Below, in pieces: positions 763 to 6,071 of a DNA stretch of 6,071 nucleotides (the stretch's first letter is position 1; every line of letters starts with the position of its first letter). The notes under the pieces were generated by a model that was not told the origin of the DNA, ran no database searches, and saw only the letters and a program-made list of their open reading frames with translations. The position numbers were made by a program, and so were the translations under genes. The DNA is from Escherichia phage ID32, in sequence record NC_007819.1. One strand, given 5' to 3'.

Positions 763-2247
763 ATGGCTACTGAATTATTCTCTGACGTTGTAAAAGCTAC
801 GTGGTCTCACGCTACTGCTAAGCACCCTCACCTTCGCATGGCTGTACAGGTTGATAATCGCAGTCGTCTTCTCTCTGATTTGGTTTACCAGCTGGAAAAA
901 CGCCTCTCTGAAGAGACTCATCTGGATGATGAGACTTATGCCCTTTATGAATCTCAAACCGGTCTTTTGGAAGACCATATGGCGCTGGTTCGGAAGTGTG
1001 CTGCCCAACTTGATAATAGTAACACTATAGACCACCGTACCCCTTTGGATGCCGAATGTGTTTTCCTGTTTGAAATGATTTGCCCAGGTGTTCGTTACGG
1101 TAAAACGTTGAATTCTCTTTGGACTAAGTATGTTGCTCAATGGCCTGAGAAGTTGATTCGTCAAGAGTTAGACATGGTTAAGCCTTTGTCCTTTAAGGAT
1201 GAAGTTGCTAAGTACATGGAGAAGATGCAGGAAAAAACACGCAAAAATCGCATGACTCAAAAAGTAATTAATGAGATGCGTATCGCTCACCAAAAGGGCT
1301 GGTTTTTCGTATTTGATACGTTGACACTTGCTGATGACCGTTTGCAGGCTTTTAATGAAAACCCCAATGCTCTTCGTGATTATTTCAGGACTGTTGGTCG
1401 AGCTGTTCTGCGCGCTGAAGGTCGTTCGGTTAAGGATTCCTACAACGACTGCTATCGCTATCTTTGTGTGCCGGAGTTTGGAGGCCAGCATGGCCGTCTT
1501 CATTGGCACGTTGTGCATATGGTGCGGACTCTTCCTTTGGGAAGTCACGACCCTAATTTCGGTCGCAAGGTTCGTAATTATCGCCAGATTAACTCGTTCC
1601 GTGGAATGTGGCCTTATGGCTTTACGCAACCGATAGCTGTACGCTATCAACATGATGCTTATTCTCGTAAAGGTTGGCTGTGGCCTGTTGACAAAACAGG
1701 AAAAGCAATGCAGAGTAAGCCCTATCAGGCGGTCGCATGGTATGTGACCAAATATGTGGCTAAGCAATCTGACCAGCGTCAGAAAGCTATTACTGAGAGA
1801 CAAAAAAAATGCAAGAATCCACTTATGGCAATCTGTCTGAAAAAGGAATTCAGAGTTCGCAGCAGCCGGAAGCTCGGAATGGAGTTACCGTCGATGGCGC
1901 ATCTCAGCAACAAAGTGCTTCTGGAGCTGAGCCGAATCAGCTTCGATTCCAGCCCTCTGTATCAGATAGTGAAAGAGAACGCCAAAAAGCAATTGACCTT
2001 GAACATCGGCGCGCTGCCTTTGCACGTCATTTTGGATGTGCGCCCGGAAGTGAGAAGTATGTTGAAAAATATCCGTCGTTTGATGAAAAAGACACCCGAG
2101 TTCAATTGGCAGAGTTCTATCGCTTCCATGACGGTCACCTTAAAAAATGGGGATATTTCTGATGAAGCACGTCAATACATTATTGATGCAGGAATTACGC
2201 CTTTTGATTTGCGAGCTAAAGCGACTCAAACTTTCGGCGGTAAGTGA
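763..2247 (+). CDS. A: Replication initiation protein A (HUH rolling-circle endonuclease), 494 aa
   Basis: Long ORF with strong similarity to phiX174 protein A as recalled (e.g. GWFFVFDTLTLADDRLQAFNENPNALRDYF, GRLHWHVVH HUH motif, paired catalytic tyrosines in AWYVTKYVAK, C-terminal FGGK). An in-frame TGA at 748-750 excludes any upstream extension. Confidence 0.95.
   Translation: MATELFSDVVKATWSHATAKHPHLRMAVQVDNRSRLLSDLVYQLEKRLSEETHLDDETYALYESQTGLLEDHMALVRKCAAQLDNSNTIDHRTPLDAECVFLFEMICPGVRYGKTLNSLWTKYVAQWPEKLIRQELDMVKPLSFKDEVAKYMEKMQEKTRKNRMTQKVINEMRIAHQKGWFFVFDTLTLADDRLQAFNENPNALRDYFRTVGRAVLRAEGRSVKDSYNDCYRYLCVPEFGGQHGRLHWHVVHMVRTLPLGSHDPNFGRKVRNYRQINSFRGMWPYGFTQPIAVRYQHDAYSRKGWLWPVDKTGKAMQSKPYQAVAWYVTKYVAKQSDQRQKAITERQKKCKNPLMAICLKKEFRVRSSRKLGMELPSMAHLSNKVLLELSRISFDSSPLYQIVKENAKKQLTLNIGALPLHVILDVRPEVRSMLKNIRRLMKKTPEFNWQSSIASMTVTLKNGDISDEARQYIIDAGITPFDLRAKATQTFGGK
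1006..1035 (+). other. Viral (+) strand rolling-circle origin; predicted protein A nick site between G1012 and A1013
   Basis: CAACTTGATAATAGTAACACTATAGACCAC closely matches the conserved 30-nt phiX174 origin (CAACTTG^ATATTAATAACACTATAGACCAC, from memory) and sits inside gene A as in phiX174. Confidence 0.8.
1216..2247 (+). CDS. A*: A* protein (in-frame internal initiation within gene A); start codon uncertain
   Basis: By analogy with phiX174, where A* begins at an internal Met near MKSRRGFA. In-frame ATGs in the homologous region are at 1216, 1225, 1252 and 1276; none has a convincing SD. Confidence 0.3.
   Translation: MEKMQEKTRKNRMTQKVINEMRIAHQKGWFFVFDTLTLADDRLQAFNENPNALRDYFRTVGRAVLRAEGRSVKDSYNDCYRYLCVPEFGGQHGRLHWHVVHMVRTLPLGSHDPNFGRKVRNYRQINSFRGMWPYGFTQPIAVRYQHDAYSRKGWLWPVDKTGKAMQSKPYQAVAWYVTKYVAKQSDQRQKAITERQKKCKNPLMAICLKKEFRVRSSRKLGMELPSMAHLSNKVLLELSRISFDSSPLYQIVKENAKKQLTLNIGALPLHVILDVRPEVRSMLKNIRRLMKKTPEFNWQSSIASMTVTLKNGDISDEARQYIIDAGITPFDLRAKATQTFGGK
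1809..2162 (+). CDS. B: Internal scaffolding protein B, 117 aa, overprinted within gene A
   Basis: ORF in the track; C-terminal AEFYRFHD...GYF matches phiX174 B; a different frame from A, as in phiX174. Confidence 0.85.
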   Translation: MQESTYGNLSEKGIQSSQQPEARNGVTVDGASQQQSASGAEPNQLRFQPSVSDSERERQKAIDLEHRRAAFARHFGCAPGSEKYVEKYPSFDEKDTRVQLAEFYRFHDGHLKKWGYF

Positions 2248-3058: not shown

Positions 3059-3063
3059 TTAAT

Positions 3064-3077
3064 GGGGCTTCGGCCCC
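3064..3077 (+). terminator. GGGGC-UUCG-GCCCC tetraloop hairpin in the J-F spacer (probable leaky terminator or mRNA-stabilising hairpin)
   Basis: Perfect 5-bp GC stem with a UUCG loop; followed by the F SD (AAGGA 3081-3085) and a T run. Confidence 0.55.
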
Positions 3078-3092
3078 TATAAGGATTTTTAA

Positions 3093-4376
3093 ATGTCAAA
3101 TGTACAGACTTCCGCTGAACGTATCCCTCATGACCTGTCTCATCTGGTTTTTGATGCAGGCAAAATTGGTCGTTTAAAAGTTGTTTCTTGGACTCCTGTT
3201 GTTGCAGGTGATTCTTTTGAGCTTGATATGATTGGCGCTATTCGCCTTTCTCCGCTTCGTCGTGGCCTTGCTGTTGACTCTCGCGTTGACCTGTTCACGT
3301 TTTATGTCCCTCATCGTCATGTATATGGTGAGCAGTGGATTGAGTTTATGAAGCAAGGTGTTGATGCTGCTCCTTTGGCCCCTGTTCAGTGCTCTCGTGG
3401 TTGGGATAGTGCTCAGTATCTTGCTACTATTCCGTCTAGTAACTTAAAGGTTCCTAAGTTTCTTCATCAAGGTTACCTGAACATTTACAATAACTACTTT
3501 AAAGCTCCGTGGATGGATGACCTGACTTATGCCAACCCGTCCAATATGGAAGGTGAAGATGTTCGTTTTGGTGTTCGTGCATGTAACTTGAAAACTATTT
3601 GGACCGCTCCGCTTCCTCCGGATACTGAAACCTCTCATTCTATGGAGACTGAAACCAACTCCATTGATATTATGGGTTTGCAGGCCGCTTATGCTCAATT
3701 ACATACTGAGCAGGAGCGTGATTACTTCATGACTCGTTATCGTGATATTGTTAACGAATTTGGTGGTAGCACTTCTTATGATGCGGATAATCGTCCTTTG
3801 CTTGTTATGCACTCTGAGTTCTGGGCCTCAGGCTATGACGTCGACGGCACCGACCAAAGTTCTCTTGGTCAGTTCTCCGGTCGTGTACAGCAGACCTTTA
3901 AGCATTCAGTACCGCGATTCTTCTGCCCTGAGCATGGTACTATGTTCACACTCGCATTGGTCCGCTTCCCGCCGACTCATGAAATGGAGATGCATTATTT
4001 AGTTGGTAAAGAAGATTTGACTTATACTGATTTGGCTTGTGACCCTGCTTTGATGGCTAACTTGCCTCCGCGTGAGGTTAATATGTCTCAGTTCTTCCAT
4101 TCTGGAAGTGCTAGCGCTAAGTTTAAGATCGCTGAAGGTCAGTGGTATCGTATGCAGCCTGACCGCGTTGCATTGCCGTATAACTATCTTGATGGTTTTC
4201 CGTTCTATAGTGCGATTCCGTCTAATGATATTAAACAGCGTGTTCTGGTTAATACTGATAACTACGATGAGGTTTTCCAGTCTATGCAACTTGCTCACTG
4301 GAATATGCAGACTAAGTTCAACTGCACGATTTATCGTAATATGCCGACCACTCGCGACTCTATTATGACCTCTTGA
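3093..4376 (+). CDS. F: Major capsid protein F, 427 aa
   Basis: Extensive similarity to phiX174 F (RLSPLRRGLA, FTFYVPHRHVYGEQWI, QGYLNIYNNYFKAPWM, YDADNRPLLVM, GTMFTLALVRFPP, TTRDSIMTS). Confidence 0.97.
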   Translation: MSNVQTSAERIPHDLSHLVFDAGKIGRLKVVSWTPVVAGDSFELDMIGAIRLSPLRRGLAVDSRVDLFTFYVPHRHVYGEQWIEFMKQGVDAAPLAPVQCSRGWDSAQYLATIPSSNLKVPKFLHQGYLNIYNNYFKAPWMDDLTYANPSNMEGEDVRFGVRACNLKTIWTAPLPPDTETSHSMETETNSIDIMGLQAAYAQLHTEQERDYFMTRYRDIVNEFGGSTSYDADNRPLLVMHSEFWASGYDVDGTDQSSLGQFSGRVQQTFKHSVPRFFCPEHGTMFTLALVRFPPTHEMEMHYLVGKEDLTYTDLACDPALMANLPPREVNMSQFFHSGSASAKFKIAEGQWYRMQPDRVALPYNYLDGFPFYSAIPSNDIKQRVLVNTDNYDEVFQSMQLAHWNMQTKFNCTIYRNMPTTRDSIMTS

Positions 4377-4382
4377 TTATGT

Positions 4383-4396
4383 GGGGCTTCGGCCCC
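4383..4396 (+). terminator. Second copy of the GGGGC-UUCG-GCCCC hairpin, in the F-G spacer
   Basis: Same stem-loop as at 3064-3077, again followed by AAGGATTTT and the next start codon. Confidence 0.55.
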
Positions 4397-4413
4397 CTTT
4401 AAGGATTTTGATT

Positions 4414-4959
4414 ATGTTTCAAGTTTATGTATCTAAACATGTTGCTCCGTTCACCTCTGTGAATCGTGCCTTTTCTATTGCCCCTGCTGCCAATCCGCAG
4501 GTTGTTAACTCTGGTGAGATTGTTGCAGGTCGTTCCACTTTCCGTATTGCGTCTTCCATTGGTGCTCCTTCTAATGGTAGTGGTTTTTCGTTTGTTCAGA
4601 TGATGGACCCTAACTCTCCTGATTCTCAGCAGGTTTTTTCTGTTGCTGCTTCGTTGTCCTTTAGTGTTGATTCGAATTATATTCCTTGTGTTGTTCGTTT
4701 TGAGAGCACTGTTGCTCAGCCTACCAGCTTTGATATTGCAACCGCTGATTTTATTCCGGTTGAGGCTTCTGCCCTTTCTCCTCGTGCGCTTAGCGTTCGC
4801 GATTGTGTTACCGTTGATGTTAAGCCTCGTACTGAAGGCAATAATGTTTTTGTTGGTGTGGTTTTCTTCTCTGCTGCCGCTAATGCTGGTAATGTCACTG
4901 GTGTTGTTTCGATGGCTCAGGTTGACCACGAAGTTACAGCTTTGCAGCCGCTTAAATAA
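4414..4959 (+). CDS. G: Major spike protein G, 181 aa
   Basis: MFQ..SKH N-terminus and C-terminal ALQPLK match phiX174 G; AAGGA (4401-4405) at 8 nt upstream. The track ORF starts at a GTG (4381) inside the hairpin and is not the likely start. Confidence 0.9.
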   Translation: MFQVYVSKHVAPFTSVNRAFSIAPAANPQVVNSGEIVAGRSTFRIASSIGAPSNGSGFSFVQMMDPNSPDSQQVFSVAASLSFSVDSNYIPCVVRFESTVAQPTSFDIATADFIPVEASALSPRALSVRDCVTVDVKPRTEGNNVFVGVVFFSAAANAGNVTGVVSMAQVDHEVTALQPLK

Positions 4960-4986
4960 AAGGCTGCCGCACTCCCGGTTAGATGC

Positions 4987-5063
4987 CTGCCCAGTGTAGG
5001 GCAGACCGAGCCGTACGGAGATACCCGATAAACTAGGAACGTGGAAGGCGCAAGCCGCCTTCC
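4987..5063 (+). other. Stem-loop cluster in the 134-nt G-H spacer; candidate primase-dependent complementary (-) strand origin
   Basis: CTGCCC-agtgta-GGGCAG (4987-5004), palindrome CCGTACGG (5011-5018) and GGAAGGCG-caagc-CGCCTTCC (5043-5063) read directly. I recall St-1/phiK/alpha3 minus-strand origins being mapped between G and H, but cannot confirm this. Confidence 0.45.
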
Positions 5064-5093
5064 CTCCTGCTAAGCCCAAAAGGAGTTACAGCG

Positions 5094-6071
5094 ATGTTAG
5101 GTGCCGTTGTAGGTGGTATTGCTTCAGCCTTAGCTGGTGGAGCCGCTTCTAAGCTGTTTGGTGGTAAACCTGCCGCTCAAGCCGCTACCGAGTCCTCTGG
5201 CCTTTCTAATGGTCAAGGTGTTATTGGTATGGATCAAGATGCCGGTATTCAGTCCGCTATTCAGGGCTCAAATGTCCCAAATGGTCAGATTCCTGCTCCC
5301 ACTACCACAGGCGGTGTTATGTCTGATGCTGGCAATATGATTAAGAATGCTGGTAAAGATTTGCTTGATGGTGTCATGACTGCTGGTAGTGACCGAGTTA
5401 AGCAGGCTTTGATTGATAAGTTAGGTGGCAATAATGCAAAGAGACAAGGACAAGCAACCCGTGATTACTTGGCTGCGGCCTTCCCTGAGCTCAACGCATG
5501 GGAGCGTGCTGGAGCTGGTGCTTCCGGCGCCGGTTTGGAATCTTCCAGCCAGGACCAACAGAAAGAATTAATGCGGATGCAGCTGGACAACCAGAAAGAT
5601 ATTGCGAAGATGCAGATGCAGAATAATTTGCAGATTGCAGGCATCCAGTCCGCTACTTCTCGTCAAAATACGAAGGATTCTGTTTATGCTCAGAATGAAA
5701 TGCTTCAGTACAATCAGCGTGAGTCGCAAGCGCGTGTTGAGTCCATCCTTGCCAACACTGACCTTACGGCTAAACAGGCCACCCATGAAATTATGAGAAT
5801 GGCTCTTACTCGTGCTCAGGAAACTGGTCAGCATTTGACTAACTCTCAGATTATGGCATTGGAGAAAAAGGTTTATGCAGAAATCGGAAAAATTCACCAA
5901 GATACTCAAAACGCTCGTTATGGTAGCTCTCAAGTTACTGCTGCGGCGAAAGATGTTACAAATATGATTTCTGATGCTGCTGGTGGTGTTGCCGATTGGG
6001 CTTCTCAGCAGTGGAATTCTTTCTTTAAGGATGGCAAGTCTAATGGTATTCCTTTAAATACCCGAAAATAG
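5094..6071 (+). CDS. H: Minor spike / DNA pilot protein H, 325 aa
   Basis: Gly/Ala-rich N-terminus (GGIASALAGGA.SKLFGG) and long matches to phiX174 H (TRDYLAAAFPELNAWERAGA, IAGIQSATSRQNTKD.VYAQNEML, QNARYGSS); AGGAG at 8 nt upstream; stop is the last codon of the window. Confidence 0.93.
   Translation: MLGAVVGGIASALAGGAASKLFGGKPAAQAATESSGLSNGQGVIGMDQDAGIQSAIQGSNVPNGQIPAPTTTGGVMSDAGNMIKNAGKDLLDGVMTAGSDRVKQALIDKLGGNNAKRQGQATRDYLAAAFPELNAWERAGAGASGAGLESSSQDQQKELMRMQLDNQKDIAKMQMQNNLQIAGIQSATSRQNTKDSVYAQNEMLQYNQRESQARVESILANTDLTAKQATHEIMRMALTRAQETGQHLTNSQIMALEKKVYAEIGKIHQDTQNARYGSSQVTAAAKDVTNMISDAAGGVADWASQQWNSFFKDGKSNGIPLNTRK

Follow-up and report, generated by a model that had tools for sequence, protein, structure and literature searches.

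The G-H intergenic spacer of an alpha3-like microvirus as a probable G4-type complementary-strand origin

At the complementary-strand origin of phage G4, primer synthesis needs only primase and SSB. The stem-loops of this origin phase SSB, and two primase molecules bind the stretches that are free of it (PMC6783573). Priming begins at the T of a 5'-CTG-3' triplet located 3' of the stem-loops, and the primer, up to 28 nt long, is then extended by Pol III (PMC6783573). In the G4 reference record (NC_001420), the F-G spacer is annotated with an 'RNA primer of replication' at 3970-3997 and with the 'origin of compl. strand synthesis' (rep_origin) at 3998; the annotated primer region ends with the T of the CTG, and the rep_origin is the next G. 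Origins of St-1, phiK and alpha3 were described by Sims, Capon and Dressler (1979, J Biol Chem 254:12615, cited in PMC13037366), priming by DnaG and SSB being named in the title of that paper. A 2026 review of mini-hairpin DNA relays from Sims et al. 1979 that Hairpin I of the St-1 and alpha3 origins contains the octamer GCGTTAGC. It places GCGAAAGC at the primer site of G4 and defines a GCG(N)NAGC family of mini-hairpins, which matches Hairpin I of G4, St-1 and alpha3 (PMC13037366). The alpha3-type origin is already known, having been characterised in 1979 in sequences near-identical to the one described here.

The window, i.e., the whole stretch of 6071 nt that was analysed, represents a full alpha3-like microvirus genome (Bullavirinae, Alphatrevirus). 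Its identity with WA13 is 94.0% from end to end; with alpha3, phiK and St-1, to which 84-88% of the window can be aligned, it is 84% within the aligned part. The gene order is A, B, K, C, D, E, J, F, G, H, and the coordinates correspond to the WA13 annotation with an offset of +4. All genes are carried on the + strand, which is therefore taken as the packaged viral strand. The spacer between G and H had drawn attention in an earlier note as unusually long and as a likely complementary-strand origin. Its length of 134 nt and its boundaries are exact (Table 1), and the remaining spacers are far shorter (J-F ~38 nt, F-G ~37 nt). Our reading of the spacer is the same: we consider it, with a probability of about 0.93, to be a complementary-strand (minus-strand) origin of the G4 type that would need only primase and SSB. 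This reading is based on homology, conserved geometry, conservation and covariation, the biochemistry of G4, St-1, phiK and alpha3 being taken from the literature.

Table 1. Coordinates of the features discussed; positions refer to the window, except for the two plasmid copies.
Feature	Position	Strand	Remarks
G-H intergenic spacer	4960..5093 (134 nt)	+ (viral, packaged, gene-sense)	G stop TAA 4957-4959, H ATG 5094; WA13 gene order
Conserved origin module AAAGGC...AAGCCC, homologous to G4 oric	4961..5075	+	98.3% alpha3; 78-80% G4-like F-G spacer
5' domain, long-range helix 4962-4968 with 5000-5007 (A5005 bulged)	4962..5007	+	two compensatory pairs
Local 6-bp hairpin CTGCCC/GGGCAG, 6-nt loop	4987..5004	+	stem 4987-4992/4999-5004; excludes the long-range helix
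Palindrome CCGTACGG	5011..5018	.	judged incidental
Predicted primer template	5040..5068	-	predicted primer pppAGGAGGGAAGGCGGCUUGCGCCUUCCACG, minus-strand sense; homology with G4 primer
Stem-loop I: 8-bp stem GGAAGGCG/CGCCTTCC, 5-nt loop	5043..5063 (arms 5043-5050/5056-5063)	+	-9.4 kcal/mol, z -3.0
Mini-hairpin motif GCGCAAGC	5048-5055	+	inside stem-loop I; GCG(N)NAGC
Primase initiation triplet 5'-CTG-3' (predicted)	5067..5069	+	aligns with G4 CTG; predicted primer start opposite T5068
Gene H Shine-Dalgarno AGGAG	5081..5085	+	8 nt before ATG; outside the origin core; read from sequence
Plasmid copy, L037 (CP057337.1)	1083-1205	-	83% identity
Plasmid copy, L033 (NZ_CP062859.1)	locus 863-985		75% identity

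A sensitive BLAST search with positions 4940-5110 against 50,697 phage records matched only alpha3-like phages (91-99% identity) and a subgroup of the G4-like phages. The G4-like matches, at 80.5% identity (ID52 and NC6, E = 4e-22), are located in the F-G spacer, which is unannotated in these records. Compared with the spacer of G4 itself by local BLAST, the window is 78% identical over 133 nt (E ~1e-22), and in the multiple alignment the two are collinear and homologous from AAAGGC to AAGCC. The alignment that had been proposed as a check of the origin reading thus gave full-length homology to the G4 origin, together with identities of 98.5% to the spacer of alpha3, 89.6% to that of St-1 and 88.1% to that of phiK. 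The reverse BLAST search, with the G4 origin against the phage collection, returned only G4-like records, at 90% identity or more, and not a single alpha3-like phage. This asymmetry with the forward search counts against the origin reading; the homology itself is settled by the direct alignment and the local BLAST.

Phage phiX174 uses a PriA-type site in an intergenic hairpin region. A PriA (n') primosome assembly site of this type, instead of a direct primase origin, could be imagined for the G-H spacer as well, since structured single-stranded DNA between genes is common to both kinds of site. However, BLAST of the spacer against the 50,697 phage records matched no phiX174-like record, though many of those share coding similarity, and the homology that was found is to the annotated primase origin of G4. 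We regard a PriA site as extremely improbable.

The earlier note had placed the origins of St-1, phiK and alpha3 between G and H. This is borne out by the octamer GCGTTAGC, which occurs once per genome (at 5048 in alpha3, 5047 in St-1 and 5044 in phiK), each time within the G-H spacer. No open-access text stating the G-H location of these origins was found; from the uniqueness of the octamer, we infer that the published origins sit in this spacer. When 185,579 species-representative genomes were scanned with the pattern GGGCNGACCNNGCCN{1,2}ACNGAGANAC, 18 matches were obtained, mostly in Streptomyces and none with extended similarity; all of them were put down to chance.

Conservation was determined in 14 alpha3-like phages (spacer and flanks) and in an alignment of 10 whole genomes. 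The core of the spacer (4961-5075) has 81.7% invariant columns among the 14 phages and 85% among the 10 genomes. In comparison, the adjacent 317 nt are invariant at only 40.4% in G and 45.1% in H, with 21-25% for the third codon positions of these flanks (14 phages), and the flanking G/H coding DNA reaches 34-60% in the 10 genomes. Towards alpha3, identity in the flanking G and H DNA drops to 58-66%, far below the value of the spacer. The segment 4977-5076 (87% invariant) is among the eight best non-overlapping 100-nt windows of the 10-genome alignment. The other seven are within genes A to D, and 4977-5076 is in the least conserved part of the genome. Homology and conservation, and not the statistics of structures, carry the case for the origin, as the individual features differ in how far they exceed chance.

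Such conservation might also be expected from hidden coding. A 226-codon antisense ORF (4399-5079) crosses the spacer, a long antisense frame being open in several relatives too, and the H frame stays open over the 19 codons that precede its ATG. This antisense frame, however, is only 76-150 codons long in alpha3, phiK, St-1, NC29 and L030, it would overlap the poorly conserved G gene, and all WA13-annotated genes are on the + strand. The upstream extension of H has no start codon before 5094, and the covariation described below is of the base-pairing kind. Across 4960-5093, no conserved ORF was found among the relatives compared. Both frames were rejected as coding, the one being shortened in relatives and the other lacking a start codon, and hidden coding has hardly any likelihood as the source of the conservation.

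For the analysis of the structures, 25 distinct copies of the origin module were aligned: 17 alpha3-like (including three IMG/VR contigs), 6 G4-like and 2 from plasmids. The perfect 8-bp stem that had been pointed out is present, with a loop of 5 nt, and corresponds to stem-loop I. It folds better than 199 of 200 shuffled sequences, and in the whole genome only one other hairpin-type inverted repeat has a seed of at least 7 nt. The pair 5046-5060 is A-T in the alpha3-like phages and C-G in the G4-like phages, a compensatory change that maintains the stem. The mini-hairpin motif inside this stem-loop is kept in all 25 sequences, with variation at its N positions (CA, TT, TA, AA, T or A), and the GCGCAAGC at 5048 is the sole GCGNNAGC on the + strand of the window genome.

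A CTG triplet lies 3 nt past stem-loop I, both in the window and in G4. It is embedded in TCCCTNCTGCNAAGCC and invariant (25/25 sequences). Three CTG triplets had been listed in the earlier note as possible primase recognition sites; those at 4987 and 5067 are correctly placed, the first one begins at 4964 and not at 4963, and only 5067-5069 matches the mapped start of G4. The triplet as such is ubiquitous (222 matches on both strands of the window), so that CTG counts are uninformative. By analogy with G4, the window sequence would prime at T5068. The G4 primer, rebuilt from the annotated G4 coordinates, reads AGUAGGGACGGCGGCUUUCGCCGUCCAU, and the predicted primer of the window, with pppA opposite T5068, would begin with AGGAGGGAAGGCGG...

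The fold of the whole spacer is only slightly better than that of shuffled sequences (z -1.9), 8 of 200 of which fold equally well. In its 5' domain, two folds are mutually exclusive, as both need positions 5000-5004. The first is the local 6-bp hairpin that had been noticed before. Its stem is present and perfect in the window; among the 25 sequences, however, its changes are one-sided and none is compensatory. In 18 of the 25, a T.G wobble takes the place of one pair, and NC28 and Lilleven have two wobbles. The second is the long-range helix, in which compensatory double changes replace C-G by T-A in 7 sequences and G-C by A-T in 2. As the aligned sequences are related and recombining, these probably represent two to four independent events, and not nine. 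Neither of these two pairs is broken in any of the 25 sequences. In the MFE fold of G4, the counterpart of the helix is found at the base of the large 5' stem-loop, which we take to be 'stem-loop III' in the numbering of the G4 literature. Calculated with DNA energy parameters, the MFE structure is the long-range fold in the G4-like phages (-12.5 vs -5.0 kcal/mol) and in most alpha3-like phages; in the window and in alpha3, the local hairpin is better by ~1.5 kcal/mol, which is inside the error of the model. As read from the alignment, the substitutions of WA45 fit the long-range helix via a shifted bulge. Covariation thus favours the long-range helix over the local hairpin, and the latter is probably not the conserved fold. 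The 5' domain of the lineage of the window might also be two-state, a possibility raised by the double change T4965/A5003, which perfects both folds.

Two other indications were set aside. The RNAalifold consensus is the local 6-bp hairpin; RNA rules pair G.U, and this consensus was not counted as support for a DNA structure. An inner helix GCACT/AGTGT, obtained when the window is forced into the long-range fold, was rejected: it is absent in the G4-like phages and carries an uncompensated change in the sequences L018 and L031.

Between the 5' domain and stem-loop I, the 8-bp palindrome CCGTACGG exists as had been described, but it is broken in the G4-like phages (by a 1-nt deletion), in phiK, ID62 and WA45 and in the plasmid copies. 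About ten further 8-bp palindromes are found in the window, with ~24 expected in 6 kb (6071/4^4), and we judge this one to be incidental. No stable fold was found in 5005-5045 (-2.1 kcal/mol, z +0.9), whereas the G4 counterpart folds, and the window has no counterpart of the middle hairpin (stem-loop II) of G4. All alpha3-like phages, among them alpha3, St-1 and phiK, which have been studied by experiment, have other sequence in place of the 3' arm of this hairpin. Stem-loop II therefore defines G4 itself and not the wider family. Still, the incomplete three-hairpin architecture, with stem-loop II missing, counts against the origin reading, as do the marginal fold of the whole spacer and the loop of stem-loop I, which differs from that of alpha3.

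The spacer belongs to the transcribed strand, separates two genes and immediately precedes the ribosome-binding site of H. Such a position would also fit a function mainly at the RNA level, as a partial terminator, as an mRNA-stabilising structure after G or as a translational regulator of H. H is needed in fewer copies than G, stem-loop I would also be stable as RNA, and other spacers of the genome carry hairpins followed by T-rich tails. Yet the terminator scan of 4960-5093 was negative, stem-loop I being followed by CTCCTGCTAAGCCC and not by a T-run, and the promoter scan gave nothing in the spacer either. An Rfam scan of the whole window, with E up to 10, returned only a meaningless miRNA match elsewhere. 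The conservation spans 115 nt and extends to unstructured sequence and to the CTG flank, whereas the H ribosome-binding segment, annotated at the equivalent place in the alpha3 record (M25640), is the part that varies among the relatives. In addition, the module precedes another gene in G4, where it is located between F and G, and sits outside any G/H context in the plasmids. An RNA-level function as the main role of the spacer is very unlikely; a secondary one, alongside the origin, is possible.

As a complementary-strand origin, the spacer would act soon after the circular single-stranded viral DNA has entered the cell. SSB would coat all of this DNA except for the folded origin, where the 5' stem-loop domain (4962-5007) and stem-loop I (5043-5063) would be left free. 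The E. coli primase DnaG would bind the SSB-phased structure directly, without DnaB or the PriA primosome. The RNA primer would begin opposite T5068, in the CTG at 5067-5069, and run leftwards through stem-loop I for up to ~28 nt. Its extension by the DNA polymerase III holoenzyme would lead to the double-stranded replicative form.

Current understanding is left unchanged by this reading, which finds a textbook primase-only origin, for decades the model of DnaG-SSB priming, in one more alpha3-like genome. In the GenBank records of alpha3-like phages that were examined, the origin is left unannotated, and the practical value lies in a confident annotation of the spacer. What evolution has preserved is the GCG(N)NAGC mini-hairpin and, in the large 5' stem-loop, the helix at its base, while the middle hairpin of G4 is dispensable across the alpha3 group.

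Copies of the module were also found in non-coding DNA of small, non-mobilizable E. coli plasmids, with 83% identity in CP057337 and CP057350 (9653 bp) and with 75% identity in NZ_CP062859 and NZ_CP062904 (8009 bp). Among complete E. coli genomes, only the two 8-kb plasmids carry it, and no chromosomal copy was found. The genes of the 9.6-kb plasmid include those for AlpA-like HTH, Sf6-type small-terminase-like and resolvase proteins, and the module lies on the strand opposite to all of the genes; on CP057337, no replication gene or protein and no origin RNA was recognised with Rfam, Pfam and PHROGs. Since the plasmid copies keep the CTG flank (TCCCTCCTGCTAAGCC), the GCGAAGC mini-hairpin and similarity to the gene H leader (ACTATCAGCT), their sequence suggests a capture from an alpha3-like phage. 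In the phages, the module fills the whole slot from stop codon to ribosome-binding site, F-G in the G4-like and G-H in the alpha3-like group. The plasmid copies hint at a module that moves between replicons. The origin (~115 nt) could be a self-contained, portable priming cassette and, if the plasmid copies work, a satellite-like or plasmid replicon would have captured a microvirus minus-strand origin. We put this forward as a tentative idea, more doubtful than probable.

Several other features of the genome were observed. The 3' part of gene G (4640-4956) is 100% identical to that of WA13 and WA45 and only 84% identical to that of NC3, ID21 and NC35, whereas the 5' part of gene H (5094-5410) is ~90-94% identical to all five alike. 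Such a mosaic points to recombination, the breakpoint being close to the origin spacer. In the 762-nt H-A 'intergenic' region, there is an ORF of 129 aa (46-435, + strand, MKPAHRLTHPVLGSWLFKCPVYIRYEHLHHGRLIKVRAVRDL...; 122 aa from the ATG at 67). It is open and conserved in most alpha3-like phages and truncated in alpha3 and St-1; it is unannotated in the WA13 record and matches no PHROG family. A second ORF, of 58 aa (527-703, + strand, MKYFSLVDEHYAYCPDSRILHITRSRVSDPRYERRF...), is present in the window and in NC29; none of the other alpha3-like genomes examined has it as an ORF, and it likewise lacks a PHROG match. The best sigma-70-like promoter of the genome (700-754, + strand) has TTGACA and TATAGT separated by 18 nt, with 11 of 12 matches. 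It is directly followed by an 11-bp hairpin with a T-run (730-754 plus TTTTT), just upstream of the start of gene A at 763, an arrangement that resembles a promoter with a leader hairpin or attenuator behind it. Finally, a hairpin-plus-RBS module precedes gene F (3062-3080) and gene G (4381-4399), both on the + strand. It consists of TGGGGCTTCGGCCCC, with a 5-bp G/C stem and a TTCG loop, and then AAGGATTTT; the copy before F has a terminator-like score.

The origin module can be compared with three known systems. Plasmids carry G4-type single-strand initiation (ssi) signals, and the plasmid copies share with the window module the invariant TCCCTCCTGCTAAGCC and the GCGAAGC mini-hairpin; unlike in the window, their stem-loop I is rearranged and has no predicted stability under nearest-neighbour rules. 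G4oric resembles the module in its stem-loop I (8 bp, 5-nt loop), in the 3-nt distance from there to the CTG, in the mini-hairpin and in the helix at the base of the 5' stem-loop, and presumably shares the mechanism, with primase and SSB only (PMC6783573). It differs in its place (between F and G, and not between G and H), in its middle hairpin CGGAGA...TCTCCG, which the window does not have, and in its far more stable 5' stem-loop (-12.5 vs about -7 to -8 kcal/mol in the window). The origins of alpha3, St-1 and phiK share with the window the G-H slot, stem-loop I, the CTG and the 5' domain. Relative to alpha3, the window has one A fewer before the H ribosome-binding site and two substitutions in the loop of stem-loop I (CA, and not TT), GCGCAAGC replacing GCGTTAGC. 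This loop variant is common to the window, WA13, WA45, NC3, NC35 and MG945254, and its CA stays within the N positions of the GCG(N)NAGC motif.
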